Source of the DNA: a virus
Taxonomy: Duplodnaviria; Heunggongvirae; Uroviricota; Caudoviricetes
Reading direction: 5' to 3' (one strand)
DNA length: 44,072 nt
Virus record (IMG/VR): IMGVR_UViG_3300045988_043987
Below, in pieces: positions 2,432 through 38,919 of this stretch. The stretch's first letter is position 1. Each line of letters begins with the position of its first letter. The notes beneath the pieces were generated by a model. That model saw only the letters and a list, made by a program, of their open reading frames with translations. It made no database searches and was not told the DNA's origin. Position numbers and translations under genes: made by a program.

Positions 2432-3692
2432 TATCACGGCGACGGAGCCACAAGGCGCATTTCTAGGTATGCATTGCAAGTTCCCGGCATTCGTGGCAGG
2501 CTTCGGCACCGGGAAGTCAGAGGTTATGTGCAACTCTGCACTACTCGACAGCATGGAAGGTGGTAGCGATTCTATCATCGCCATGTACGAGCCTACCTAT
2601 GACCTGGTGCGCCTCATCCTTGCACCGCGTATGGAAGAAAAGCTGACGGACTGGGGTATCCGATACAAATACAACAAGTCTGACAACATAATCTATACGT
2701 CATCCAGTCAATTTGGGGATTTTGTTCTGCGTACATTGGATAATCCAGCACGAATCGTAGGTTACGAGTCCTTTCGCGCAAAAATCGACGAGTTGGACAC
2801 CCTTAACATGGAACATGCTGAGCACGCGTGGAACAAAGTCATCGCCCGTAACCGCCAGTTGCCGCGGACATATAAACCTATTACGCCCAAACCGGCTAAT
2901 ACCGTTTCCGTGTTCACCACGCCGGAAGGATTCCGTTTCGTACATGACCGCTGGGTTGTTAAAAAGAATCCTGGCTACGAGATGATTCAGGCATCCACCC
3001 TGTCGAACCCGTTCCTGCCGGAAGATTATGTTCAGTCATTGCGCGATACCTACCCGGGTCAGTTGATTGACGCCTACATTAACGGCGAGTTTGTAAACCT
3101 CACGGCTGGGACGGTCTACTACGCTTACGACCGCAGGAAAAATAGTAGTCGTGAAACAATCAAGCCTGGCGAGACTCTGTATATTGGGCAGGACTTTAAC
3201 GTAGGCCACATGGCGAGCACAGTTTACGTGCAACGCGGGAAGGTGTGGCACGCTGTCGCCGAGTTGGTTGATATGTTCGATACCCCCGATGTAGTGCGGG
3301 CTATAACCGAGCGATGGAAAAGTAAGGGTCACTATATCGTTATGTACCCGGACGCCAGCGGCAAAAACCGTAAAAGCAACAACGCCAGTACCTCAGACAT
3401 CGCCCAGCTACAGCAGGCCGGTTTCGAAGTACGCGCTAAATCGACAAACCCACCGGTTAAAGACCGCGTATCTGCGATGAATAAGGCGCTTGAATCTGGT
3501 ATGGTCATGATTAACGAACAGGCTTGCCCAGTTACGGCGCGATGCCTGGAGCAGCAAGCCTACGACAAGAACGGCGAACCGGATAAATCCGGGGGCGTGG
3601 ACCACCAGAATGATGGAACCACATACCCTATCGCGTACGAAATGCCGATTCGCAAACCAGTTATTAACGTCCCGGTGACTTTCGCACTTTAA
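2421..3692 (+). CDS. terminase large subunit
   Basis: N-terminal Walker A-like GFGTGKS, C-terminal nuclease-like region; GTG start with AAGGTGG ribosome-binding site (start uncertain; first ATG at 2469). Confidence 0.8.
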   Translation: MNVNITATEPQGAFLGMHCKFPAFVAGFGTGKSEVMCNSALLDSMEGGSDSIIAMYEPTYDLVRLILAPRMEEKLTDWGIRYKYNKSDNIIYTSSSQFGDFVLRTLDNPARIVGYESFRAKIDELDTLNMEHAEHAWNKVIARNRQLPRTYKPITPKPANTVSVFTTPEGFRFVHDRWVVKKNPGYEMIQASTLSNPFLPEDYVQSLRDTYPGQLIDAYINGEFVNLTAGTVYYAYDRRKNSSRETIKPGETLYIGQDFNVGHMASTVYVQRGKVWHAVAELVDMFDTPDVVRAITERWKSKGHYIVMYPDASGKNRKSNNASTSDIAQLQQAGFEVRAKSTNPPVKDRVSAMNKALESGMVMINEQACPVTARCLEQQAYDKNGEPDKSGGVDHQNDGTTYPIAYEMPIRKPVINVPVTFAL

Positions 3693-3704
3693 GAGGATTA
3701 TTCA

Positions 3705-5186
3705 ATGTTAACTATGAACGGTCAGAATCAGGGTGTTAAGACAAAACACCTGGAATGGCTACATCACTTCGATAAATGGCAGAAGGTACGCCACGCTCTG
3801 GAAGGCGACCTCATCCGTTATCTTCGCAACGTCGGGAAGAACGAGCCGGACCCTAAATATGCAGCACAGCGCCAGGAAGAATACGAGAATGGCGCTATCT
3901 GCTACAACTTCACAAAACGTACCCTGGCGGGGATGGTCGGCAGCGTTATGCGTAAAGACCCTGAGCAAATTATCCCACCTGAAATGGAGTACCTGCTACG
4001 CAACGCGGATGGCTCAGGTGTCGGCTTGTGGCAGCACGCGCAGGACACGCTGATGGAGATTGACTCGGTGGGCCGTGGCGGTTTGCTGGTGGACGCCCCT
4101 GAGACTGCTGCTGCAACGGCGGCAGAACAGAACGCGGGGCTATTAAACCCGGTCATCGCGTTCTACACCGCGGAGAACATCATCAACTGGCGACTTACTC
4201 GCATCGGCTCAGTGAACCGCGTGACGATGGTTGTATTGCGTGAGGTATGGGAATACTCAGAACCTGGTGCAGAGTTCGAAACCAAGTTCGGTGAGCAATA
4301 CCGCGTCCTTGACCTTATTGAAGGCCGTTACCGTCAGCGCATTTACCGCTTCGATGCCGAAGGTGGTGCTCAGGATGAGGTAATCGAAATATTCCCGGAA
4401 CTCGGCGAACAGTTACGCGGCAAAATCCCCTTCACATTCATCGGGGCAAGCAACAACGATGCAACCATCGACGACGCACCTTTGCTGCCGTTGGCTGAAC
4501 TTAATATCGGACATTTCCGCAACAGCGCGGACAATGAGGAGTCCAGCTTCGTTGTAGGCCAACCTACTCTGTTCATCGCCCCGGGAGAGAACATGAGCAT
4601 GGAACAGTGGGCGGAAGCTAACCCGCACGGCGTGCGCATGGGGTCGCGTTCAGGCCATAACATCGGCTACGGCGGCAATGCGTTTCTGGTCCAGGCGGGA
4701 GAGAACAACCTTGCCAAGCAGAACATGCTGGATAAAGAGAATCAGGCAATCCAGATTGGGGCGCAGCTTATCACCCCTACGCAGCAAATCACCGCGGAAT
4801 CGGCCCGCCTGCAACGCGGCGCTGACACCTCAGTTATGGCAACAATCGCACGTAACGTAAGCATGGCGTATACCGATGCGTTGCGCTGGGTAGCGGCGAT
4901 GCTAGGGTTGCGTGAAGGCACAGAGATTGAGTTCAAACTGAACATGGAATTCTTCCTGCAACCGATGACCGCTCAGGACCGTGCACAGTGGATGGCGGAT
5001 ATTAACGCCGGTTTGCTGCCAGCTACTGCTTACTACGCGGCGTTGCGTAAGGCCGGTGTAACCGACTGGACTGACGAGGACATTCAGAACGCTATTGAGG
5101 ATGCACCTCTGCCGAATGCTACGATGGTGCAAGGAGATATTCCGGCATCGGCTAACCCGCAAGACCAACAGAACCCGCCGCAATGA
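3705..5186 (+). CDS. portal protein
   Basis: 493-aa ORF directly after TerL; size and position typical. Confidence 0.75.
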   Translation: MLTMNGQNQGVKTKHLEWLHHFDKWQKVRHALEGDLIRYLRNVGKNEPDPKYAAQRQEEYENGAICYNFTKRTLAGMVGSVMRKDPEQIIPPEMEYLLRNADGSGVGLWQHAQDTLMEIDSVGRGGLLVDAPETAAATAAEQNAGLLNPVIAFYTAENIINWRLTRIGSVNRVTMVVLREVWEYSEPGAEFETKFGEQYRVLDLIEGRYRQRIYRFDAEGGAQDEVIEIFPELGEQLRGKIPFTFIGASNNDATIDDAPLLPLAELNIGHFRNSADNEESSFVVGQPTLFIAPGENMSMEQWAEANPHGVRMGSRSGHNIGYGGNAFLVQAGENNLAKQNMLDKENQAIQIGAQLITPTQQITAESARLQRGADTSVMATIARNVSMAYTDALRWVAAMLGLREGTEIEFKLNMEFFLQPMTAQDRAQWMADINAGLLPATAYYAALRKAGVTDWTDEDIQNAIEDAPLPNATMVQGDIPASANPQDQQNPPQ

Positions 5187-5187
5187 G

Positions 5188-5210
5188 AAAGGCCCCGTGA
5201 GGGGCCTTAA
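5188..5210. terminator. bidirectional hairpin terminator (AAAGGCCCC-GTGA-GGGGCCTT)
   Basis: perfect GC-rich hairpin between convergent genes. Confidence 0.55.
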
Positions 5211-5212
5211 AT

Positions 5213-5398
5213 TTAACAAGCTGATGTTGTCCAGTAATCACCATAATCATTTACGTAAAATTTCTTCATACCAGACCACCCGAAGTTCTTACATGTCTTT
5301 TTGAATCGCTTCATTACCTGTGTTCTTGTCAGCATCAAAACACTACCGTTTCCATCTCTTGCGAAATCTCCGCCGGACTTATATGGTTTCTTTTCCAC
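5213..5398 (-). CDS. hypothetical lysine-rich small protein (61 aa), antisense to late genes
   Basis: GTG start preceded by GGGGG; conserved operator/promoter motif directly upstream at 5424-5456. Confidence 0.4.
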   Translation of the reverse strand: MEKKPYKSGGDFARDGNGSVLMLTRTQVMKRFKKTCKNFGWSGMKKFYVNDYGDYWTTSAC

Positions 5399-5423
5399 TT
5401 TTATGCCCCCTGTTTAAATTAAC

Positions 5424-5456
5424 CGAATAGTACCCTATTATATTGGTGTCTGCAAA
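5424..5456. promoter_or_regulatory. conserved dyad operator/promoter motif, copy 1
   Basis: CGAATAGTACCCTATTATATTGGTGTCTGCAAA; core AATAG-N4-CTATT with TATAAT on the minus strand. Confidence 0.6.
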
Positions 5457-5499
5457 TATTATTTTTATGCGTTACACTGGCGATACTACAGGAGGGCTT

Positions 5500-6543
5500 A
5501 TGAGCTTACTTACATCGCTAATCAGCCACCAGATATGGCTGCAACGCACCGCATCCGGCGAAGTGAAAGACCTTGCACCGTTTATTCAGGAGATGCGGGA
5601 TGAAATCAAACGGCAGGTGCTGTTATTCGGTGACGACGGGCGAAGCACAGCGCGCCTGAATAAACTGTTACGCGACCTCGAAGAAGCATTGACCGGACTT
5701 ACGGGTGACTGGCAGACAAAGCTGACAGAAGACCTTAAGGAACTGGCAGCGTATGAGGCTGAGTGGAACGTAAAGACACTTACCGCCAACGTAAATGCGG
5801 AATTTGTTACACCTACCGCCGAACAGGTGTGGGCCGCCGCCGAGTTTCAACCGCTCTCATTAAGCGACAAACCAGTTGATTTCACCAAGCTGATGTCGGG
5901 CTGGGGTGAAACAGAAGTCGCGCGCCTTGTAACCGGCGTTAAAATGGGTTTCGTACAAGGCCAAACCACACGGCAGATTGTTAAAAGCGTAGTCGGCGCT
6001 GGCGGACTGGCAGACATCTCGGAACGAAACGCAGCTACAGTAATACGTACTGCGCTGTCTCATGTGTCCAACGAAGCCCGTAACGAGACGTACCGCCAGA
6101 ACGACGACATCATTGAGAAATACGAAATAGTCGCCACACTCGACAGCCGTACATCAACAATATGCCGTAGCCTGGACAGGCAGGAATACGAAATCAGCAA
6201 AGGTCCGAGACCCCCTTTCCATCCTAACTGCAGAACGACCACTGCGCCCGTAATCAGTTCCGAGTTCGATTTCCTGGATAAAGGTGCAAAACGCGCGGCT
6301 AAGGGTGCGAACGGCGGTACTCAGGTAAGTGCGGACACCACTTACTACGAGTTCCTCAAACAACAACCGGCGTGGTTTCAGGACCAGGCCCTCGGCCCTG
6401 TTCGCGGTAAGATTTTCCGTAACAGCGGTATATCGCCGGAAGAGTTTCGCGTAATATCTGTAGATGGTTTTGGGAATCCGCTCACGCTTAAGCAGATGGC
6501 GGAACTCGATAAACGTGTCGCTGATTATCTGAAAGGGGAATAA
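5500..6543 (+). CDS. head morphogenesis protein (Mu F / SPP1 gp7-like minor head protein)
   Basis: characteristic C-terminal motif ...STICRSLD...PPFHPNCRTT; ATG at 5500 with AGGAGG. Confidence 0.85.
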   Translation: MSLLTSLISHQIWLQRTASGEVKDLAPFIQEMRDEIKRQVLLFGDDGRSTARLNKLLRDLEEALTGLTGDWQTKLTEDLKELAAYEAEWNVKTLTANVNAEFVTPTAEQVWAAAEFQPLSLSDKPVDFTKLMSGWGETEVARLVTGVKMGFVQGQTTRQIVKSVVGAGGLADISERNAATVIRTALSHVSNEARNETYRQNDDIIEKYEIVATLDSRTSTICRSLDRQEYEISKGPRPPFHPNCRTTTAPVISSEFDFLDKGAKRAAKGANGGTQVSADTTYYEFLKQQPAWFQDQALGPVRGKIFRNSGISPEEFRVISVDGFGNPLTLKQMAELDKRVADYLKGE

Positions 6544-7004
6544 TGATGGGCTTTTTCAAAGTAACTGATGTACCGTCGCGTCGCGTAGTCCAGTACGCCC
6601 GCGTGTCTGGCTCCGGCGAGAACGTAGTATTTATTGAGGATGAAAGTGTACTAGGTACACCAGTAGACGATATGCCGTTTGCGGATAAGACAGGCATCGC
6701 ACTTCCTGCGGCAGGTATGCTTTATGAGATTCCGTATCTGGCTGATGCGGGTGATGTGTATTTCTCCGAGCAACCGAAAGATGCGGAACTGGTAGACGGC
6801 AGCGCAACCCTCACTGTCGAAGTTAAAGCAGGTGAAGCGCCGTATACACTGACCTGGTACAAAGACGGTAAGGAAGTGGTAAACGCCCCGGAAGAGGCCT
6901 TGTCTCTGACGGTCAATGCAGTTGGTGAATACTTCGTTAAGGTTACTGATGCCGATGGTGTAGATGCGGTAAGTAAAGCGGCGAAGGTTACTAAGCCAGA
7001 ATGA
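6543..7004 (+). CDS. Ig-like domain protein (putative capsid decoration)
   Basis: Ig-like beta-sandwich signature TLTVEVKAGEAPYTLTWYKDGKEV. Confidence 0.6.
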   Translation: MMGFFKVTDVPSRRVVQYARVSGSGENVVFIEDESVLGTPVDDMPFADKTGIALPAAGMLYEIPYLADAGDVYFSEQPKDAELVDGSATLTVEVKAGEAPYTLTWYKDGKEVVNAPEEALSLTVNAVGEYFVKVTDADGVDAVSKAAKVTKPE

Positions 7005-7006
7005 TA

Positions 7007-7038
7007 AAAGGCCCCTTATGGGGCCTTAATTTTATTTA
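7007..7038. terminator. bidirectional intrinsic terminator
   Basis: AAAAGGCCCC-TTAT-GGGGCCTT followed by AATTTTATTT. Confidence 0.7.
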
Positions 7039-7553
7039 AATCGCGCTGGCATTAGCACCATAAATGCAGTGTTTGAAAATGATATTTTGCATCCTCTGAT
7101 TTGGTCCTGGAAATCGAAACGAGCGATTTCATTTTTGTATGCCTTAGAAATCTTGTGCGCGTCCGCCAAGTAGCGCAGGGTGAACCCTATGCTGTCAACC
7201 GCCCCCGGCGTGATGTGCGCCACACGTCTCCAGTCAGGAAACCTTCCGTCTACAACATCTACCGGAAGTGTACATATAAGCGCACGACTATCGTCATAGA
7301 AAGAAACGCTGCTGTTGTCGTGGTCTACTTCCGCGTAGTTAAATTTAGAAGGCTCTCTCCCTTTGATGTCTATGAGAACCGCATTCTCAACGTTTGTCTT
7401 AACGTTGTCGCAGAACAATCTATGACCGTCCGTAGACACTATCAATCCCTCCGGGTCTATGTAAAAAGCATTCAAATAATAGCGCACATCATTTTTAGCT
7501 CTGCATATTTTTGCCCCTACATACGCAGGGAAAGTAATTACTGTAGTAGCCAT
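7032..7553 (-). CDS. truncated beta sliding clamp (DnaN)-like protein
   Basis: segments DVRYYLNA, STDGHRLF, VDGRFPDWRRV, SIGFTLRYLADA and C-terminal MVLMPARFK match recalled enterobacterial DnaN domain II and C-terminus; GAGGAGG ribosome-binding site; own promoter motif. Confidence 0.7.
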   Translation of the reverse strand: MATTVITFPAYVGAKICRAKNDVRYYLNAFYIDPEGLIVSTDGHRLFCDNVKTNVENAVLIDIKGREPSKFNYAEVDHDNSSVSFYDDSRALICTLPVDVVDGRFPDWRRVAHITPGAVDSIGFTLRYLADAHKISKAYKNEIARFDFQDQIRGCKISFSNTAFMVLMPARFK

Positions 7554-7578
7554 TTTAACTCCTCCTCGTTTCGATAAC

Positions 7579-7611
7579 TGAATAGTACCCTATTATGTTG
7601 GGGTGTGCAAA
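7579..7611. promoter_or_regulatory. conserved dyad operator/promoter motif, copy 2
   Basis: TGAATAGTACCCTATTATGTTGGGGTGTGCAAA; minus-strand reading precedes the clamp-like gene's ribosome-binding site. Confidence 0.6.
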
Positions 7612-10261: not shown

Positions 10262-10277
10262 GGTTAAGCTATAATCG

Positions 10278-10304
10278 AGAGGGACTTCGGTCCCTCTTTT
10301 CATT
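10278..10304 (+). terminator. intrinsic terminator with UUCG tetraloop
   Basis: AGAGGGAC-UUCG-GUCCCUCU followed by TTTT. Confidence 0.7.
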
Positions 10305-10320
10305 TACTAAGAGGTAAATT

Positions 10321-10620
10321 ATGGCTAAGACCGGAAAAGGCTTGCCGCGCAGCCTTCAGAATGTTGACTTCGGCGACTTTGATATCCCAGTCACGCCTGC
10401 TACTACCAGCGTAGTTGGTGGCGTTAAAAAGTCAGCTACTGTAGCCGCACCAGCCGCCATTACCGCTGGTGAAGGGGCACAGTCTGCGGATGCCCCGACT
10501 AAGATCGAGTTCGACGCCCTTGTAGCGGAGTACAACAAACTCCGAACTGATGTTACCGCGCTGCGCACTACCGTAGCAAATCTATTGACTGCGCTTAAAA
10601 ACGCAGGAACTGTAAGCTAA
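10321..10620 (+). CDS. hypothetical virion protein (99 aa)
   Basis: ORF with AAGAGG ribosome-binding site within head module. Confidence 0.55.
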   Translation: MAKTGKGLPRSLQNVDFGDFDIPVTPATTSVVGGVKKSATVAAPAAITAGEGAQSADAPTKIEFDALVAEYNKLRTDVTALRTTVANLLTALKNAGTVS

Positions 10621-10632
10621 AGGAGCTTAAAA

Positions 10633-10983
10633 ATGGTTGATGTAATCAAACGTCGTATTACCGGTGTTTCTGATGATTCTCCTGCCGATGGTCAGGTTGA
10701 AATCGATATGGCGAATATCTCGCCAGCGTCTTTTTCTACCGCACTCTCGGCTACTACCGCAGTTACAGCAGGGCAGACAATGACTCTGACCGTAGCGGTA
10801 ACTGGCGGTCTGGAGCCGTATTCCTACCAGTGGTATAAGAACAACAACGCCATCGACGGAGCTACCGCAGCTACCTATGCTAAAGCGTCGACCACTACCG
10901 CCGATTCCGGTACGTATAAAGTGGTTGTTCACGATGTATATGGTAATATTATCTCCGGCAGCACTGTAGCAACTGTGTCTTAA
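10633..10983 (+). CDS. Ig-like domain protein (second putative decoration protein)
   Basis: Ig-like signature TLTVAVTGGLEPYSYQWYKNNNAIDGAT. Confidence 0.6.
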   Translation: MVDVIKRRITGVSDDSPADGQVEIDMANISPASFSTALSATTAVTAGQTMTLTVAVTGGLEPYSYQWYKNNNAIDGATAATYAKASTTTADSGTYKVVVHDVYGNIISGSTVATVS

Positions 10984-13086: not shown

Positions 13087-13499
13087 TGGGCTACTTTGAG
13101 GACTTAACCAAAGCGTTCGATGTGCCACTGGTAGCCTTCGGAACCACCAACGGCATCAAGGTCGCGCTTGAAAATATCGACGCGCCAACGTCAACCAATA
13201 CCCCGTATCTGGCAAGTTACATGTTGCTGGCGGATACGGAACAGGCGGATTTGTTCTTCACGGAACAACGCGCCGGTGTTTATCAGGTAGACATTAACTA
13301 CGCATCGGTGAAAGGTAGCGCGCCAATCAATAAAATGGCAGACTTACTTAACACGGCGTTTAAAGCAGGTAAGTCATTTTCGCGTAACGACATCTGCGCC
13401 GAGGTTCAATCGGTTAGCCTGGGGCCGCTAATTGTAGAAAACGGATGGGCCAAACGACCATTGTCAATTAACTTTATTGCATTCACCAAGAGGCTGTGA
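13083..13499 (+). CDS. tail completion/terminator protein (putative)
   Basis: ORF immediately upstream of tail tube gene. Confidence 0.5.
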   Translation: MMGYFEDLTKAFDVPLVAFGTTNGIKVALENIDAPTSTNTPYLASYMLLADTEQADLFFTEQRAGVYQVDINYASVKGSAPINKMADLLNTAFKAGKSFSRNDICAEVQSVSLGPLIVENGWAKRPLSINFIAFTKRL

Positions 13500-13501
13500 A
13501 T

Positions 13502-14668
13502 ATGGCTACAACTCCTTTTAAGGGCGCGACTACCGCGCAATTCTATGTGGCAGAAGTCACCCCGGGCGTAACACCGACTAACCCGGTATGGTCGCCGTTG
13601 CGTAACACAGGTGGCGTCCCCGCTATTACCCGCGACACGCTGACCTCCAACGAGCTGGACGGCAGCCGTGAAACTACGTCCATCCGCACCGGTAACAAGC
13701 AGATTAGCGGGGAATACGCTATTGAGCTTAGCTCGAAAAGCCAGGACGACTGGCTGGCGGGGGCTTTAGGCTCTACGTGGCAATCCGGTAGATCTCTGAC
13801 AGGGCTATCAATTACCGTCGCACCGGCGGGCAAGACGTTCACACGCGCCACTGGCAGCTTCATCACTGACGGCGTTGAAGTTGGCGACCTGATCGCGTTT
13901 ACCGACTTAACAGGCGATAACGCAAAACCATTTATTGTTACTGCAGTAACGGCTACGGTTGTTACTGGTGCAGGTATCCAACACACCCTGACCACCGAGA
14001 CAAAAACCAGTAAGGCTAAAACTGGCGACACGCTGGAAACCGGCAACACGTGTAAGACGTTCTCTATCCTCACCTGGTACAAAGGCCAGTGCGGCGGTAC
14101 TGACGCGTACACGTTAACCAAAGGCGTGGAAGTTTCTGGTTTTACCATCGAACAGGCTGTTAACGCAATGGTAACGGGCAGCTTCCCGTTCATCGGGCGC
14201 AGCCAGGAGATTCTCGCGACGCCGCCGTCTGGTTCCGACTTCTCTTCCGTTACGTTTGGTGACGAGCCGTTCTCTTCGGTTGACGTTTCTGTGTTCGATG
14301 GGTCTACGCCGTTGCGTTGCGACAGCCTGACCATCACCAACGATAACAGCGCGTCTGCGCAGTTCGAACTCGGCAACACTAACGTAGCGTTTGTGGAACG
14401 TAGCCGCGCGGCTAACACCTTCTCCATCTCCGGTAAGCTGTACGACATGGCGATGATTCAGAAGTTTATCAACGAACAGCAGGTAGAGATTAACTCTATT
14501 CTGGCTGGGGTAAACGGGGCTATGTCCTTTAGTCTGAAACGTGCAGAACTTACAGCGGTTACACCAGAGATTGGCGGGCCTGAGTCAATCACTCAGTCTA
14601 TTGAAGGCCAGGCTACGGGCAACCAGTACCAGTCGTCTATTGTTATCCAGCGTATCACCTACGCATAA
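13502..14668 (+). CDS. major tail (tube) protein (putative)
   Basis: large ORF upstream of chaperone/tape-measure genes; AAGAGG ribosome-binding site; followed by strong terminator. Confidence 0.6.
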   Translation: MATTPFKGATTAQFYVAEVTPGVTPTNPVWSPLRNTGGVPAITRDTLTSNELDGSRETTSIRTGNKQISGEYAIELSSKSQDDWLAGALGSTWQSGRSLTGLSITVAPAGKTFTRATGSFITDGVEVGDLIAFTDLTGDNAKPFIVTAVTATVVTGAGIQHTLTTETKTSKAKTGDTLETGNTCKTFSILTWYKGQCGGTDAYTLTKGVEVSGFTIEQAVNAMVTGSFPFIGRSQEILATPPSGSDFSSVTFGDEPFSSVDVSVFDGSTPLRCDSLTITNDNSASAQFELGNTNVAFVERSRAANTFSISGKLYDMAMIQKFINEQQVEINSILAGVNGAMSFSLKRAELTAVTPEIGGPESITQSIEGQATGNQYQSSIVIQRITYA

Positions 14669-14672
14669 AACT

Positions 14673-14697
14673 AAGGCCCCTTTCGGGGCCTTTTTCT
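14673..14697. terminator. bidirectional intrinsic terminator
   Basis: AAGGCCCC-TTTC-GGGGCCTT plus TTTTT. Confidence 0.7.
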
Positions 14698-15251
14698 TAC
14701 AAACCTAATTTTAAAGCAATGTCTATAACGTTCGATTTAACGTCACCTGGTATGATGTAGGTGTCGTAATCTTTTACACCGCTAACATCATACAGATAAC
14801 CACGGCTGTCCCCCTCAAACGTATAGCCGTCGCGATGGAGGCGAACGATTCGCACGTCATGACCCGCGGCGACGATAGGGGCTACTTCGCTGGCGAACCC
14901 GCCGTCGGACACTACAAAAACTTCGTCGCCGTCTGGCAAGTTTTCAGCAAGATACTTACCGAAATAATCACTACCAAGTACCGGTTTAATGAATTGCTCA
15001 GATATAGCAATCATGAACTGACGCCGCGACAAGCCATTAAGGAAGCCTTCTGACTTTTCTTTCCGTGCCCGGTCGTCGTAGCCGTCGATAAACTCGTGGT
15101 AAGCATCCGGGCCTAATGCCGCCAGAGCGATATTGAACATTGGATTCTTGAAACTGGTGATTCCCTTCGCAAAGCCCATTTCTACCAGCGCCATAGCAAG
15201 TGTGTCTTTCCCGCAACCCGCCGGGCCATTAAGAATAATTACCTTAGCCAT
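14697..15251 (-). CDS. deoxynucleoside monophosphate kinase (T4 gp1-like)
   Basis: P-loop NGPAGCGKDT near N-terminus. Confidence 0.7.
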   Translation of the reverse strand: MAKVIILNGPAGCGKDTLAMALVEMGFAKGITSFKNPMFNIALAALGPDAYHEFIDGYDDRARKEKSEGFLNGLSRRQFMIAISEQFIKPVLGSDYFGKYLAENLPDGDEVFVVSDGGFASEVAPIVAAGHDVRIVRLHRDGYTFEGDSRGYLYDVSGVKDYDTYIIPGDVKSNVIDIALKLGL

Positions 15252-15739
15252 TATTTATCGCTCCCGTGTGGTTTTAAGTGTGTAGAGTTCCCGTTACAGT
15301 CGTATTCAGTAACCGCGTGAGTGGTTATACCGAGTCCGCGGAAATGCTTTATTACCGCGGGAGAGTCGTCGAATGCGCACAAGATTCTTTCCAGCCCGAT
15401 AGCACGTAACACCTCTTCTTTAATTACGATGTCTTTTCTGTTGTCGTGTTTGCTGCGCATTATCAGCGTGTCAAACTTAACGTTATTTTCTCGCAACCAT
15501 TTACGAGTCCCATCCTCAGCGTCGTCGCTTCGACCGGTAAGGATGATTACGGTCATCCCGGTATGCCACAGCGTGTTGCACAAGTGAATGTTGTCATATA
15601 TCGGCGCATCATCTTTGCACGCCATGTTAAATGGCCTCCAAGCCCATGTTTCGCCGTAGTTATCTTTCGGCAGCAGGTGCAAACGATGTGTACCATCTGC
15701 TAATGTCCCGTCTAAATCGAAAATTACAATATCTTTCAT
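15251..15739 (-). CDS. HAD-superfamily phosphatase/nucleotidase
   Basis: HAD motif I FDLDGTL at N-terminus. Confidence 0.7.
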   Translation of the reverse strand: MKDIVIFDLDGTLADGTHRLHLLPKDNYGETWAWRPFNMACKDDAPIYDNIHLCNTLWHTGMTVIILTGRSDDAEDGTRKWLRENNVKFDTLIMRSKHDNRKDIVIKEEVLRAIGLERILCAFDDSPAVIKHFRGLGITTHAVTEYDCNGNSTHLKPHGSDK

Positions 15740-16866
15740 CCCAGCATCTCCGGTGAAATAGTTAAACGCGCAACCTCGCCATATTCGGCGCTATATGTAA
15801 TTACGTTTGCACTGCGGCCTGACATCCATCCGCCGCGAGAGGCGTAGGCGTCTTTAGCCGCCAGGGTGCGGTGTTGCTCGACAATCATGTTACGACTTTC
15901 TACAATCTTCTGGTGGTGCAGGTGGCCCACGTGAGCGTAGCTGTAAACACTCTCGCCGAACGCTTTACGGAACTTGGCAATCATAACAGGTTCGATAGCG
16001 TCGAATCGCGCCTTATGGCCGTGATGAAAGAACAGAGTCGTTTTGCCGTGTCGCACCATCTTGTAAACATCCGGCGACGTATCGACGAACACACGCGGCT
16101 CGTTGTCGTACAGCGTGCTAAACATCTCAGCCAACCAAATCATTCCGCTTTCGTCGTGGTTCCCTTGCACGATAAGCAAGCGAACATTTTTATGCTTAAC
16201 AAGGGCCATATCAACAACACGGCGGACCATACGAATCATGTAGCGGACAAGTTTCTGATAACGGGTGTCAGCATCAAGAACATTACCACTCGCCGGTGTA
16301 ACGGCAACCAGACTATCGAAGTGCGCAAGGTCCCCAAGCAGGTTAATAACCCCTGTTCCCGCATCCGGTGCTTTCTGAAACGCGGCATCGAACCAGCGGG
16401 AGAACAGGTCTTCTGCAATCTTCATATCCCAGTCGTCGCCGCTTTCATCGGCCCAGGCCAGCATACCGAGATGGAAATCAGATACCGTGTAAAGATTGAG
16501 TAGTTTATCGTCGCGTTTAGCCCGAACGGCTTTAACAGGAGCAACGGGGGTAATCTCCGACTTCATCCCTTCGATTACGGCTTTCATCAACTCTACCTGA
16601 CGTTCGGCATCGGTGTCGGTCTTAACCCATTGCAGCTTAGTGTTGCCGAACTCGTCCACCAGTGACGACGTGCCTTTAATCTTGTAGCCGTCTGGTACAA
16701 GATGACTGACGTCGCGGCCGTGCCCTACGCCTTTCTTAGCCAGCTTCGCTTTACGGATACGAATAACGCGATCTGAGATGCCATATTTACGGGCTATATC
16801 GATATTCCTCAATCCGGCGTTCAATTCTTCCTGTAACTGTTCGTCGGTTATTTTCTTCCGGGCCAT
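15736..16866 (-). CDS. metallophosphoesterase (SbcD/Mre11-like motifs) with N-terminal helix-turn-helix
   Basis: motifs SDFHLG, GDLAHFD, GNHDE, GHLHH; N-terminal helix-turn-helix ARKYGISDRVIRIRKAKL. Confidence 0.65.
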   Translation of the reverse strand: MARKKITDEQLQEELNAGLRNIDIARKYGISDRVIRIRKAKLAKKGVGHGRDVSHLVPDGYKIKGTSSLVDEFGNTKLQWVKTDTDAERQVELMKAVIEGMKSEITPVAPVKAVRAKRDDKLLNLYTVSDFHLGMLAWADESGDDWDMKIAEDLFSRWFDAAFQKAPDAGTGVINLLGDLAHFDSLVAVTPASGNVLDADTRYQKLVRYMIRMVRRVVDMALVKHKNVRLLIVQGNHDESGMIWLAEMFSTLYDNEPRVFVDTSPDVYKMVRHGKTTLFFHHGHKARFDAIEPVMIAKFRKAFGESVYSYAHVGHLHHQKIVESRNMIVEQHRTLAAKDAYASRGGWMSGRSANVITYSAEYGEVARLTISPEMLG

Positions 16867-16904
16867 GCTTACGTCCTCGTGTTTAGGATTTGTCCTATAC
16901 TAGC

Positions 16905-17096
16905 TCACTTCTCGTTAACATTCGAGTTGCACGCCCAGATTAAAATAAACACCCACGGCAGCAGAACCCATCCGAGAAACAGGTTAGCCATGAATATCGC
17001 TAACTTCGCTTTATGGTTACGGAAGTATGCAACCAGGAAAGGTGCGAAATAGGCGAGCAGTGCAAACAGAATTAAGGAAACTGGTAAACTTGACAT
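16905..17096 (-). CDS. small membrane protein (about 63 aa, 2 TM helices)
   Basis: hydrophobic helices; AAGGGG before ATG at 17096; first gene of antisense operon. Confidence 0.5.
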   Translation of the reverse strand: MSSLPVSLILFALLAYFAPFLVAYFRNHKAKLAIFMANLFLGWVLLPWVFILIWACNSNVNEK

Positions 17097-17122
17097 TTTA
17101 AACCCCTTCATTGTTGGTGTAA

Positions 17123-17156
17123 GTGAATAGTACCCTATTATATTGGGGCGCGCAAG
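17123..17156. promoter_or_regulatory. conserved dyad operator/promoter motif, copy 3
   Basis: GTGAATAGTACCCTATTATATTGGGGCGCGCAAG. Confidence 0.6.
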
Positions 17157-17263: not shown

Positions 17264-17680
17264 ATGAAACTTTCTGATTTTTATTTCGAAGAGAAAGCAC
17301 TGGTAGGCAAGAAGATGCCGATTACGCTGCCGAATGGTGAAGACTCAGGAGAGTGGCTTAACGTTGTAAATACGGATGCGGATGCCGCCGTTAAAGCCGG
17401 GCGTGCTTTCATTATTGCGTACCGCCGTGGGTTGGCGCGTTTCGAAGAACTGGAAAAAGCCGCCAAAGAAACCGGCGACTATACTGAATATAACCTGGCG
17501 GTTAACGAACTGGCGGAAGACCTCAACCGGCAACTCGCGGCAGAAGTCGTAAACGGCTGGAGCTTTGACGAGCCATTCTCTAAGGAAGCGTTTAACAAAT
17601 TGCTCGATCAGTTCAAAGCATTAGGCACACAGGTAGCGGCGTTTCATAACGCTGAACGTAAAGCATTACAGGAAAAGTAG
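17264..17680 (+). CDS. tail assembly chaperone (gpG-like)
   Basis: acidic 138-aa ORF immediately upstream of tape measure gene. Confidence 0.65.
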   Translation: MKLSDFYFEEKALVGKKMPITLPNGEDSGEWLNVVNTDADAAVKAGRAFIIAYRRGLARFEELEKAAKETGDYTEYNLAVNELAEDLNRQLAAEVVNGWSFDEPFSKEAFNKLLDQFKALGTQVAAFHNAERKALQEK

Positions 17681-18045
17681 ACGCGCTGTACAGGTTCGCC
17701 ACCTACGAGTTCGTTGATAAGCATAAAATCAGAGAGTTTGATTCTATAGCTGACGGACACGAACAGGCGCTTATCGCGATGGGTGTAATCGATAAGAAAA
17801 AACGTGCAGCGCGACGGGGTGGGCCGGAATGCCCGCCCCTTTTTATATCCACCTTTGAGACGTATTGCGACATTAAGTTTACGCGACACGTGCGCGAGGA
17901 CGCTGTAGTATTGTTTGCAAGAGAATCCGTTACGTGGCAAGACCTGAAAGCCTATCTCGATGTTACGCAAAAGCAGCTTAGCCTGTTCGAGATAGACATT
18001 ATCATGGGCTTAGAAGCAATCTTTGAAGGTAGAAATCATGGCTGA
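17662..18045 (+). CDS. tail assembly chaperone T-frame extension (putative -1 frameshift product)
   Basis: -1 frame opens at 17662, overlaps last 6 codons of G ORF; slippery-like GGAAAAG at 17671-17677; ends overlapping tape-measure start. Confidence 0.45.
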   Translation, partial: SITGKVDALYRFATYEFVDKHKIREFDSIADGHEQALIAMGVIDKKKRAARRGGPECPPLFISTFETYCDIKFTRHVREDAVVLFARESVTWQDLKAYLDVTQKQLSLFEIDIIMGLEAIFEGRNHG

Positions 18046-26916: not shown

Positions 26917-28337
26917 TTCTTACCTCGTCTCTTCATGTAGTTAAGCAACTCTTCCTGCACCGATTTCTTCTCATCAGTACGCGCGGCAACAACCTCGTCA
27001 AGAGTGTCTTTGGCAACGATATGATAGAGGAACACCGGGCGCTCGTGGCCTGCCTGTTTCTGGCGGACTGGGCCTATGCGCTCGACAACCTGCAAATAGT
27101 GCTCAAGGTTCCACCCTGGCGAAATAAACGCCAGATGATGCCCGCCGTCCTGTAAATTGAGGCCGTGGCCCGCCGACGCAGGATGCACGCATAAGATTTC
27201 GATTTCGCCGCGGTTCCACGCTTCCATCTGCTTATTACCCTTAGCGCCTTTGGCGAACGCCTGCGCCTGCGGGAATCGTTTAAGGATGCGCTCCAGTTCA
27301 TGCTTGAACTGATAGGCGACTAGCAACGGTGCACCCTGCAACTCTTCCACAATGGACTCCAGTGCGTCCAGTTTCGTGTCGTGCACTTTCTCCCAGTCTT
27401 TCGTTGCTTCGCCGTCCGGCCCTGACACATACACGGCACCGGATGCAATCTGAAGGCACTTAGATGTCTTCGCCGCCGCGTTAGCCGCTTCAACTTCCCC
27501 GCTCTCCAGCTCCGCGAATAGCTTCTCCTCCATATCGATGTACGCCTGACGTGCTTTCTTCGGCAGGTCGATTTCAACCGGTACGATAATCGGCGCTTCA
27601 CATCCGAACCACTCGGCGGCGTCAATCGTGAGACTAATGTCCTTCATCTTCTGGTGAATCTCGGTATCCGCCCCCGGGCGGGCATGGTACTCGCGTGCCA
27701 TCGCCGACTTACCTTTCTGTACCGAGTTAAACCAGCGGTCTGTGAATGCCGTGTATGAAGACCCCAAGCGCTCTCCTGCGTCGATAAACCAGTTCTGGCC
27801 CCACAAGTCCTTGAGGCCGTTCGGTGATGGTGTGCCAGTCAGGTTGATAAAACGCTTAACCTTACCGAAAGCAACCTTGCTAAGAGCCTTTGCGCGCTTG
27901 CTTCCACCTGAACGGCTGCGGAACGATTTAAGCTTCGTGCTTTCATCGGCAACGATAACCGTAAAAGGCCAGTCGTCTTTGCCGTAGTAGTCAATCAGCC
28001 ACTCGATAACTTCGTAGTTTGTGCACACCACGTTAGCGTCTGACTCCAGTGCCGCGATGCGACGCCTCTCGCTACCTGTTGCATCTACGACACTCAGGCA
28101 TGGAAATCGCCATTTCTCTTGTTCTGCGGGCCATGTGCCGGATGCGACGCGCAACGGAGCGAGGATTAACACGCGGTCGTCGTCCGTAAGCTGCCCGTTG
28201 CGGAACAGTCTGTTTAACGTCCACAGTACGCTGCCAGTCTTCCCGGCACCCATGCTTGCCCATATGTTGCAGCGATGGTGCCGCAACATGAACGAGGTAA
28301 TGAGCTTCTGGTACTCGCGCCTTTGAAACTTACTCAT
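26913..28337 (-). CDS. SF2 DNA helicase (SNF2/DEAD-like)
   Basis: Walker A MGAGKTG, Walker B/DExx VIVADEST, helicase C-terminal region. Confidence 0.85.
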   Translation of the reverse strand: MSKFQRREYQKLITSFMLRHHRCNIWASMGAGKTGSVLWTLNRLFRNGQLTDDDRVLILAPLRVASGTWPAEQEKWRFPCLSVVDATGSERRRIAALESDANVVCTNYEVIEWLIDYYGKDDWPFTVIVADESTKLKSFRSRSGGSKRAKALSKVAFGKVKRFINLTGTPSPNGLKDLWGQNWFIDAGERLGSSYTAFTDRWFNSVQKGKSAMAREYHARPGADTEIHQKMKDISLTIDAAEWFGCEAPIIVPVEIDLPKKARQAYIDMEEKLFAELESGEVEAANAAAKTSKCLQIASGAVYVSGPDGEATKDWEKVHDTKLDALESIVEELQGAPLLVAYQFKHELERILKRFPQAQAFAKGAKGNKQMEAWNRGEIEILCVHPASAGHGLNLQDGGHHLAFISPGWNLEHYLQVVERIGPVRQKQAGHERPVFLYHIVAKDTLDEVVAARTDEKKSVQEELLNYMKRRGKK

Positions 28338-29254
28338 TTACAGCCCCCATGAACGCCTTTATAAATTCAGCGGCTACTTGCGGGACGATGGCATTGCCGT
28401 AACCGCGCAATCGTCCCACTCTGGCGGGTATCCCATTAGCCAGCGGGAATGTGCCGGGTTCAACTGGCCGGAACTTTCCATCCCTGCATCCGAGCCAGTC
28501 AGCATCCGACCAGAAGCTGCGATTCGGATTGCCCCCACGAGGTAGCATTGATTGTGCAGATTGTTCGGGTCTCTTTTTGTTTCCGCCTCGCTGTAGCTGC
28601 CGTGACGCGAATTCTGAACCGTCGGCGTCCCCCATGCCGCTTTCAGTCCCTGCTCTGTTGAGTAGTCCAGCCTGTCGAATGTTCTGTCCTTCCCGTCCTT
28701 GCGAATCACTGTCTCTCCGCTCCCTTTGTGATCGTTCGCTGTCGGTGTCGGCCAGTTGGTACGCACCAAAGAAGAGTCGTTCTCTTTTATGCGGAGCGCC
28801 GACGCTACAAGCTGGGAGTACGGCAAACCCGACGGCGTAGTCTTCTCCTTCCAGGTGAGTTTGTAAATCGCACATCCACGATTTTGCAATTGCTGGCGCA
28901 ACCTGTTCCCCAAAGAGGACTGGAGGGTGGCACTCGCTGATGAGGTCGAGGAAGACTGGCGCGAGGTGTCTCGGGTCGAACTGTCCGAGTTGTTTTCCTG
29001 CCGCGCTAAACGGTTGGCAAGGCGGGCTTCCCGTCCAGAGAGGCGTATCTTCCGAAACTCCCGCAAGTCTGAGCGCGAGAGGCCAGCCGCCGATGCCAGC
29101 GAAAAAAATGACACTGGGTGAACCCGTCAAGGTCTTCTGGCTTAACTTCGGTAATGCTTCTTTCATCTACAACTCCAAAAGGTATGTGACCCTGTTTTAT
29201 TAATTCACGCAGCCACGCGGCTGCACCTTTATCCCATTCATTGTAATAGTTCAT
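28330..29254 (-). CDS. DNA cytosine-5 methyltransferase, reading frame interrupted at a homopolymer
   Basis: motifs NEWDK, FFAGIGGW, PCQPFSAAGK, GEQV, GNAIVPQVA; N-terminal 82-aa ORF (29254-29006) and catalytic ORF (29166-28330) differ by one base at the A7 run 29102-29108. Confidence 0.75.
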
Positions 29255-38885: not shown

Positions 38886-38919
38886 CTTGCACACCCCAAT
38901 ATAATAGGATACTATTCAC
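38886..38919 (+). promoter_or_regulatory. conserved dyad operator/promoter motif, copy 4 (TTGCAC-N7-TATAAT-AGGATACTATTCAC)
   Basis: perfect TATAAT at 38900-38905; about 30 nt upstream of ribosome-binding site of 38950 gene. Confidence 0.6.

Follow-up and report, generated by a model that had tools for sequence, protein, structure and literature searches.

A core antisense operon in the tail module of a Kagunavirus-type phage and a candidate nucleotide-salvage trio of phosphoesterase, phosphatase and kinase

Why does a siphophage keep four minus-strand genes between its tail tube gene and its tail assembly chaperone genes, and do the products of these genes act together? The question is raised by the IMG/VR virus record IMGVR_UViG_3300045988_043987, a stretch of 44,072 nucleotides (the window, in what follows), which is a near-complete Kagunavirus-type siphophage genome (Guernseyvirinae) of an E. 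coli phage type. A previous sequence-only reading had taken the four genes for a horizontally acquired cassette, in which an SbcD/Mre11-type phosphoesterase, a phosphatase and a kinase serve nucleotide salvage from host DNA. It is found here that the operon is the standard core antisense non-structural operon of all Guernseyvirinae, and that the phosphatase and kinase genes alone are accessory. The helix-turn-helix (HTH) metallophosphoesterase (MPE), the HAD phosphatase and the kinase, called the trio below, are probably functionally coupled, and what they do together may well be salvage.

The operon consists of four minus-strand open reading frames (ORFs) in the order Imm, MPE, HAD, kinase, and has the following parts and neighbours, where aa denotes amino acids and AF2 an AlphaFold2 model.

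13496-14668, plus strand: tail tube gene (PF18906)
14673-14692, both strands: bidirectional intrinsic terminator hairpin, common to the tail tube gene (plus) and the operon (minus)
14693-15729, minus strand: replaceable HAD and kinase cassette, delimited by similarity breakpoints against phages AG11 and Ro145c2YLVW
14697-15251, minus strand: P-loop protein of nucleoside-monophosphate-kinase fold, T4 gp1-like (184 aa; phrog_139; Foldseek match 1DEK)
15251-15739, minus strand: predicted capless HAD phosphatase of the T4 Pnkp 3'-phosphatase type (162 aa; PF25109)
15736-16866, minus strand: HTH-metallophosphoesterase (376 aa), the invariant core gene of the slot
15739-16512, minus strand: MPE catalytic domain, aa 119-376 (AF2 model; fold matches to the MPE core)
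16735-16845, minus strand: MPE N-terminal three-helix HTH, aa 8-44 (AF2 helices and weak HTH-domain matches)
16905-17111, minus strand: predicted Imm-type superinfection-immunity membrane protein (68-aa ORF, probably 63 aa from 17096; PF14373, phrog_1039)
17123-17156, minus strand: promoter-like motif of 34 nt, at the head of the operon
17264-17680 and 17779-18045, plus strand: tail assembly chaperone ORFs, flanking the operon on the promoter side

All four ORFs are located where the sequence-only reading had put them, between the tail tube and chaperone genes, and since each gives strong family matches they are not chance ORFs. The MPE and HAD frames share ATGA, and those of HAD and kinase share TAATG, an overlap which is consistent with translational coupling, while Imm and MPE are separated by 38 nt with an AGGA ribosome-binding site. 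Over 4 kb around the operon, the nucleotide identity to Escherichia phages EM1, K1G and K1ind1-3 and to Raoultella phage RP180 is 90-92%, and public databases already contain a protein identical to the 376-aa product.

The origin of the operon can be judged from what relatives carry at the same position. The slot and its MPE gene are found in the same antisense position in all seven Guernseyvirinae examined, and MPE is the only invariant gene of the slot, as is seen when its contents are read from the chaperone side.

Window, EM1 and K1B4 (Kagunavirus): Imm, MPE, HAD, kinase (in K1B4 with one small ORF after the kinase)
L223 (Jerseyvirus): 109-aa protein, MPE, HAD, kinase
AG11 and SGPC (Jerseyvirus): 109-aa protein, MPE, 76-aa protein
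wast (Jerseyvirus): Imm, MPE, HNH, 76-aa protein, Ant-like protein
Ro145c2YLVW (Kagunavirus): Imm, MPE, HNH, 76-aa protein, HNH

The same pattern appears in a collection of 50,697 phage records, to which all record counts given here refer. The subfamily tail tube is present at 60% identity or more in about 495 records and MPE at 80% identity or more in 292, with more divergent MPE versions filling the same slot too. Imm occurs in 351 records. HAD and the kinase, at 80% identity or more, are found in 57 and 53 records, respectively. Nucleotide similarity to AG11 and Ro145c2YLVW ends at the MPE stop codon (~15727-15730) and returns at the terminator (~14692-14700), and relatives that lack HAD and kinase have the 76-aa gene in their place, with or without HNH homing endonucleases. 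Because the breakpoints fall at these two sites, the HAD and kinase genes make up a discrete, replaceable cassette of ~1.04 kb. The idea of a cassette is therefore retained for this exchangeable pair, and given up for the slot, for MPE and mostly for Imm, which are core: relatives carry them at the same locus. Horizontal acquisition of all four genes, as originally suggested, does not agree with the finding of MPE in the same antisense slot of every Guernseyvirinae genome examined, nor does the slight shift in GC content speak for it.

Four phages unrelated to one another (T1, wast, Ro145c2YLVW and Vibrio phage K137) have homologous HNH genes inserted directly 3' of MPE. The homologues have the following locus coordinates.

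T1: 6207-6689 and 10264-10803
wast: 6171-6671
Ro145c2YLVW: 4628-5098 and 5386-5874
K137: 6241-6750

The HNH endonuclease was considered as a functional partner of MPE and rejected: since these genes all come from a single homing-endonuclease family, of which each genome has several copies, they are mobile elements, not partners. The 3' end of MPE may have served repeatedly as a homing site.

The operon also appears to be expressed apart from the structural genes around it. The motif at 17123-17156 consists of TTGCGC, a conserved 18-nt spacer containing TATAAT, and TACTAT. Its core occurs four times in the window, at 5423-5448(-), 7578-7603(-), 17123-17148(-) and 38894-38919(+), when no copy is expected by chance, and each is followed by a start codon 25-31 nt downstream. 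The wider conserved block of ~45 nt reads TTGCRC..CCAAyATAATAGGrTACTATTC..TTA, with a strongly conserved spacer and a perfect TATAAT inside it, and the copy upstream of Imm is kept in phage EM1. TTGCGC and TACTAT, 18 nt apart, can be read as -35 and -10 elements. The motif, previously named a promoter, is thus real and non-random; because a generic sigma-70 consensus scan makes no call at it, its promoter function is something that we infer. The motif probably represents a class of phage promoters or operators. A copy stands at the head of each of the three antisense islands of the structural module and of a small-gene cluster at 38.9 kb, which suggests one non-structural transcription class. 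At the other end of the operon, the hairpin at 14673-14692 (8-bp stem, six GC pairs, a T-run on both strands) scores as a terminator in both directions, as had been claimed for it, and is conserved at 96% in Ro145c2YLVW and wast.

Temporal transcription has been followed by RNA-seq in K1B4, the only close relative for which such a transcriptome was found. There, the Imm gene (K1B4_045) belongs to a class with the DNA polymerase and methylases, and the capsid and tail genes belong to another class (PMC12645636). The sampling scheme of 120 minutes makes the terms 'early' and 'late' hard to read, and Imm is the only operon gene for which a temporal class is stated, so that the comparison concerns class membership of this one gene; it agrees with transcription of the operon independently of the tail genes.

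The two other antisense islands under the same motif are located in the head and packaging region. One, at 7032-7553(-), encodes a 173-aa protein of phrog_3007 (labelled RusA-like resolvase) with weaker matches to processivity factors; the other, at 5213-5398(-), is a 61-aa ORF with no family. In EM1, a Dam methylase replaces the 173-aa gene, and no gene is annotated at the position of the 61-aa ORF.

For the function of the operon, its central gene must be considered in some detail. MPE belongs to phrog_704 (E 8e-166) and carries the motifs SDFHLG (aa 129-134), GDLAHFD (178-184), GNHDE (235-239) and GHLHH (314-318). Its Pfam scores, 20.7 bits for Metallophos (gathering score 27) and 18.9 for Metallophos_2 (21.5), are both below threshold, and its membership in the calcineurin-like superfamily therefore rests on motifs and fold. 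Homologue searches with the single sequence and with a nine-sequence profile gave only proteins that are 88-100% identical, too shallow for an alignment. A search of 1.84 billion cluster representatives gave 4629 related clusters (at 50% identity), and in the phage collection the HTH-MPE family occurs in 2055 records. When 142 diverse homologs with 33-51% identity are aligned, D130, H132, G178, D179, N236, H237, H282, G314 and H317 are invariant, and H315 is conserved in at least 90%. All five metallophosphoesterase motifs carry the full ligand set (D130, H132, D179, N236, H237, H282, H315 and H317), and since all of these positions but H315 are invariant across the homologs the binuclear metal site is intact.

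The AF2 model of MPE (predicted local distance difference test, pLDDT, 94.1) comprises an HTH at aa 8-44 (helices 8-16, 21-28 and 32-44), a beta-hairpin at 61-85, a helix at 87-102 and the phosphoesterase core at 119-376. The N-terminus also has weak sequence matches to GerE (E 0.018) and to LuxR/FixJ-type and LrpA HTH domains. The catalytic domain is modelled at pLDDT 96-99 with the alpha/beta sandwich of the MPE fold, and the fold matches cover this core only. In this way the quoted metal-binding motifs and the N-terminal HTH are both borne out, as is the remark that there is no Rad50/SbcC partner, for no such SMC-like protein is present among the 76 annotated genes of EM1 or in a Pfam scan of the window's large ORFs.

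The designation 'SbcD/Mre11-type' fares differently. The motifs, the metal ligands and the fold stand, but nothing follows the core in the AF2 model, so that a C-terminal capping domain is lacking, and NCBIfam gives no SbcD or Mre11 match. The 142-sequence profile reaches SbcD and Mre11 among PDB sequences only at E 0.5-1.7. No significant match to the catalytic domain was found in PDB sequence and profile searches, and only fold comparison is informative. Foldseek returns generic MPE-fold matches at 10-16% identity, with the DNA exonucleases PolD-DP1, SbcD and Mre11 as the closest structural neighbours. Because capping domain, Rad50 partner and significant sequence-model match are all missing, MPE is a nuclease-like metallophosphoesterase of a family of its own and not a member of SbcD/Mre11. 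No experimental characterisation of the HTH-MPE family was found in the literature, and nothing on a Kagunavirus phosphoesterase or a bacteriophage T1 metallophosphoesterase.

Within the MPE gene, a mosaic is seen as well. Dhillonvirus HK578 shares 86% identity with it in the catalytic domain (aa 119-376) and Jerseyvirus wast 49%, and for the hairpin and linker (aa 48-118) the order is reversed, with 75% to wast and 51% to HK578. By these opposite identity patterns, the N-terminal module may be lineage-specific and the catalytic domain exchangeable.

Gene 3 matches PF25109 HAD_PNKP with 72.3 bits (cut-off 27.6) over residues 3-145 of 162, and its best sequence relatives in PDB are Pnkp1 (4xrp) and T4 Pnkp (5uj0, 1ltq). 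It is aligned by hhalign to the T4 Pnkp phosphatase domain, residues 156-298, with a probability of 96.8%, and D8, D10, T12, R19, T68, R70, K107 and D125 are invariant in five orthologs with 47-93% identity. By these matches, its product is predicted to be a capless HAD phosphatase of the Pnkp 3'-phosphatase type.

Gene 4 belongs to phrog_139 (E 1.5e-44) and is modelled with pLDDT 96.2. Pairwise BLAST and shallow hhalign against T4 gp1 and T4 Pnkp find only the P-loop and do not discriminate between the two, and the kinase type was instead decided by a 50-sequence profile and the AF2 model. With Foldseek, the top match of the model is 1DEK, the T4 deoxynucleoside monophosphate (dNMP) kinase (E 2.8e-5, TMq 0.66), followed by phosphomevalonate and adenylate kinases, and no polynucleotide kinase is found among the top 50 fold matches. 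The family profile matches 1dek at E 0.003 over profile positions 7-131. The Pfam model DNMK (PF21448) does not match the window protein; it matches four of 50 family members, at best with E 2.5e-6. Beyond the P-loop there is no homology to the T4 Pnkp kinase domain, as hhalign aligns residues 1-22 only. The structural model thus predicts a T4 gp1-like dNMP kinase.

Gene 1 matches PF14373 Imm_superinfect (48.3 bits, cut-off 27.9) and phrog_1039 (E 1e-22), from which it is predicted to encode a T4 Imm-type superinfection-immunity membrane protein. Its true start is probably the second ATG at 17096, which gives 63 aa, because this ATG is preceded by a GAAGGGG Shine-Dalgarno sequence and fits the 192-nt annotation in EM1 and K1B4. 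The previous assignments of a membrane protein, a HAD phosphatase and a gp1-like dNMP kinase all hold, the first being narrowed to Imm and the second to Pnkp. In AG11, SGPC and L223, Imm is replaced by an unrelated 109-aa protein. This protein (AG11 gp23, locus coordinates 3109-3438; phrog_14165), with a hydrophobic N-terminus, is the first operon gene in many Jerseyviruses and may be an alternative exclusion protein that acts at the envelope.

That MPE, HAD and kinase belong together is seen in other phages. The three genes are adjacent, on one strand and in the same order in Klebsiella Webervirus NJS1 (gp55-57) and Yersinia phage vB_YenM_534, in Pseudomonas podovirus MR4 (full-length MPE identity 52%), and in Jerseyvirus L223 and Pantoea phage AAS23 (gp38-40). 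At least five distinct lineages are covered, including a podovirus and one phage that bears a myovirus name, with frames that overlap or nearly abut. Of 80 IMG/VR loci retrieved via the kinase, 63 have HAD on the same strand, no more than about 2.2 kb upstream of the kinase, 27 (in several lineages) have the full trio and 17 have the kinase alone. HAD and kinase are accordingly the tightest pair, joined by MPE in a subset of lineages. Because MPE, HAD and kinase recur as an adjacent unit in a Webervirus, a Yersinia phage and a Pseudomonas podovirus, functional coupling of the three is probable.

A joint pathway can be outlined as follows. MPE would bind DNA through its HTH and cut or trim it as a nuclease or phosphodiesterase; HAD would take 3'-phosphates off the resulting oligo- or mononucleotides; and the gp1-like kinase would turn 5'-dNMPs into deoxynucleoside diphosphates (dNDPs), so that degraded DNA feeds the deoxynucleoside triphosphate (dNTP) pool of the phage. 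Imm would stand apart and block superinfection independently of the trio. The phage encodes a DNA polymerase, helicases and a PD-(D/E)XK nuclease, and the EM1 annotation contains no ribonucleotide reductase, thymidylate synthase or other nucleotide-synthesis gene; a phage so equipped would be helped by salvage. The T4 Pnkp phosphatase is active also on 3'-dNMPs, and the Golestan phage paper likewise has this phosphatase acting on 3'-dNMPs. Circumstantial support may be seen in three further observations. The authors of the AAS23 study filed the trio under nucleotide metabolism (PMC8004638); in MR4 (locus 3253-6540) the trio lies among exonuclease, endonuclease and ligase genes; and Guernseyvirinae are reported to be sensitive to Ec2ApeA, for whose deoxydinucleotide trigger an origin in the breakdown of the host genome by nucleases has been proposed (bioRxiv 10.64898/2026.01.26.701840). 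With Imm set aside, nucleotide salvage, in which degraded DNA would supply the dNTP pool of the phage, is the best-supported reading and is given about an even chance.

A number of points weigh against salvage. The structural neighbours of MPE are only marginally biased toward nucleases, since the non-nuclease MPEs LpxH, MJ0936, YfcE and Vps29 score nearly equal, and the clade to which HAD belongs is known for polynucleotide end-healing and is not a nucleotidase clade. In most lineages MPE has no adjoining HAD and kinase, and the pair is absent from about 90% of Guernseyvirinae records and hence dispensable. Dhillonviruses are reported to be resistant to ApeA (bioRxiv 10.64898/2026.01.26.701840), and since they carry an MPE with an 86% identical catalytic domain there is no simple correlation between MPE and the trigger. 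Neither biochemical or genetic data on MPE, HAD or kinase of this family nor a demonstration of host DNA degradation by a Kagunavirus was found in the literature.

How do other explanations compare? The trio could instead heal ends, with HAD and kinase as split counterparts of the T4 Pnkp activities, MPE trimming damaged ends or opening 2',3'-cyclic phosphates, and a ligase of host or phage sealing the product; such a module would counter host nucleases, for instance anticodon nucleases or DNA-nicking defences. HAD is homologous over its full length to the T4 Pnkp phosphatase and has the RNA-repair enzyme Pnkp1 and T4 Pnkp as best PDB relatives, and phosphatase followed by kinase is the most conserved pairing (the 63 of 80 loci above). 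In the bacterial Pnkp of the Pnkp/Hen1 system, a phosphoesterase of MPE fold is the healing domain. A DNA ligase directly follows the kinase in MR4, and in Campylobacter phage F365 (locus 2654-4951) one directly precedes the MPE homolog; these ligases are the main contextual hint of an end-repair role. The kinase, however, is structurally nearest to T4 gp1 and to small-molecule kinases, with its alignment to T4 Pnkp confined to the P-loop, no ligase is seen in the EM1 annotation or among the Pfam matches of the large window ORFs, and MPE and HAD, both of them 3'-end phosphoesterases in this scheme, would in part duplicate each other. It is because of the kinase fold that a split Pnkp ranks below salvage, at something like one chance in several. 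The signal-clearing variant of a defence role, instead of or beside salvage, is improbable: in it the trio would act as a counter-defence module that removes mono- and dinucleotide alarm signals arising from genome degradation, with MPE hydrolysing short oligo- and dinucleotides, HAD dephosphorylating signal nucleotides as MisB does, and the kinase converting dNMPs to dNDPs. The Metis defence uses a pair of metallophosphatase and HAD-phosphatase with m6dAMP as signal, and the ApeA signal consists of 5'-phosphorylated deoxydinucleotides. Several of the trio-bearing phages examined also encode Dam-type methylases, and m6dAMP production would for that reason be an issue for such phages. PADLOC defence-system models (2023 library, older than Metis) gave no match to the four operon proteins at E<=0.01.

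Or the trio may have no joint function at all, the slot being a 'moron' landing pad, a permissive insertion site for unrelated accessory genes. This would account for the variable contents of the slot (Imm or the 109-aa protein; the 76-aa gene, one or two HNH genes and the Ant-like protein against HAD and kinase), for the differences between close relatives at the two other antisense islands (the 173-aa gene against the Dam methylase of EM1; the 61-aa ORF absent from EM1), and for MPE without the HAD and kinase pair in T1, HK578 and Vibrio phages. The recurrence of the trio order in at least five lineages is, on the other hand, hard to explain without selection for co-inheritance, and the landing pad is considered unlikely, more so than end-healing. 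Least probable of all is the recent acquisition of a four-gene foreign cassette around an SbcD/Mre11-type nuclease without Rad50. It draws on the opposite orientation inside the tail module, on the operon's own promoter-like motif and terminator, and on a GC content of 0.48-0.51 that is slightly below the 0.53-0.56 of the flanks, a shift too slight for base composition to give a clear signal of foreign origin. Slot, MPE and Imm are spread through the subfamily in the numbers given above, MPE has neither a capping domain nor a Rad50 partner nor an Mre11/SbcD sequence-model match, and as far as the genomes compared can tell the foreign cassette is refuted by synteny.

Some further observations concern the neighbourhood and the proteins. 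The two chaperone ORFs are separated by a gap of 98 nt, where the usual frameshift arrangement is overlapping, and inside the second one (17779-18045) there is a strong terminator-like hairpin at 17816-17839 (9-bp stem, eight GC pairs, followed by TTTTTAT). In the replication module, a C-5 cytosine DNA methylase (PF00145) is encoded at 28330-29166(-), and close relatives have Dam-type methylases as well; the methylases of the window and its relatives bear on restriction evasion and on which modified nucleotides are released by DNA degradation. The HTH-MPE homolog of AAS23, gp38, was detected by liquid chromatography-tandem mass spectrometry (LC-MS/MS) in virion preparations (PMC8004638), and it is a possibility that the MPE enzyme, encoded inside the tail module in Guernseyvirinae, is virion-associated.

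As a genome feature, the operon is routine, and its remaining value lies in the biochemistry of the HTH-MPE family and of the phosphatase and kinase linked to it. The family is very large, and model phages carry it too, among them T1 and the BASEL Kagunaviruses, of which Bas74 has a tail tube identity of 97%. The linkage of the trio, seen in siphoviruses, in a podovirus and in a phage that bears a myovirus name, points to a concrete three-enzyme pathway, and it is timely in that defences sensing products of DNA degradation, Metis and ApeA, have been newly described.

Compared with published Kagunavirus and Jerseyvirus genomes, the operon shows no difference of substance. EM1, K1G, K1ind1-3, RP180 and K1B4 have the same four genes in the same order at the same antisense site, with a Kagunavirus nucleotide identity of 90-92%, and L223 differs by the 109-aa protein as first gene. 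In the annotations of these relatives the genes appear as superinfection immunity, DNA repair exonuclease or metallophosphoesterase, polynucleotide kinase/phosphatase and dNMP kinase. Operon and annotation are thus already public, the trio is already in print, and the window adds no new architecture.

The individual enzymes stand at different distances from their known counterparts. From Mre11/SbcD and PolD-DP1, to which it is 13-17% identical, MPE differs by the absence of a capping domain and of a Rad50/SbcC or polymerase partner, and it bears an N-terminal HTH and a beta-hairpin instead. HAD resembles the phosphatase domain of T4 Pnkp (PseT) over the whole domain and has retained the DxDGT nucleophile motif together with the conserved Arg, Lys and Asp positions, but it is a stand-alone protein, and the homology of the adjoining kinase to the kinase domain of T4 Pnkp does not extend past the P-loop. 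T4 gp1 (1DEK) is the best structural match of the kinase and has the GKDT P-loop in common with it, and some family members match DNMK; yet the identity is only 18%, and the window protein is 57 residues shorter and falls below the Pfam DNMK model. The trio of Drexlerviridae (AAS23 gp38-40, NJS1 gp55-57) is like that of the window in order and strand, with identities of 41% for MPE, 59% for HAD and 43% for the kinase, and differs from it in that it is located in the replication and lysis region, not in the tail module, and has no Imm gene.

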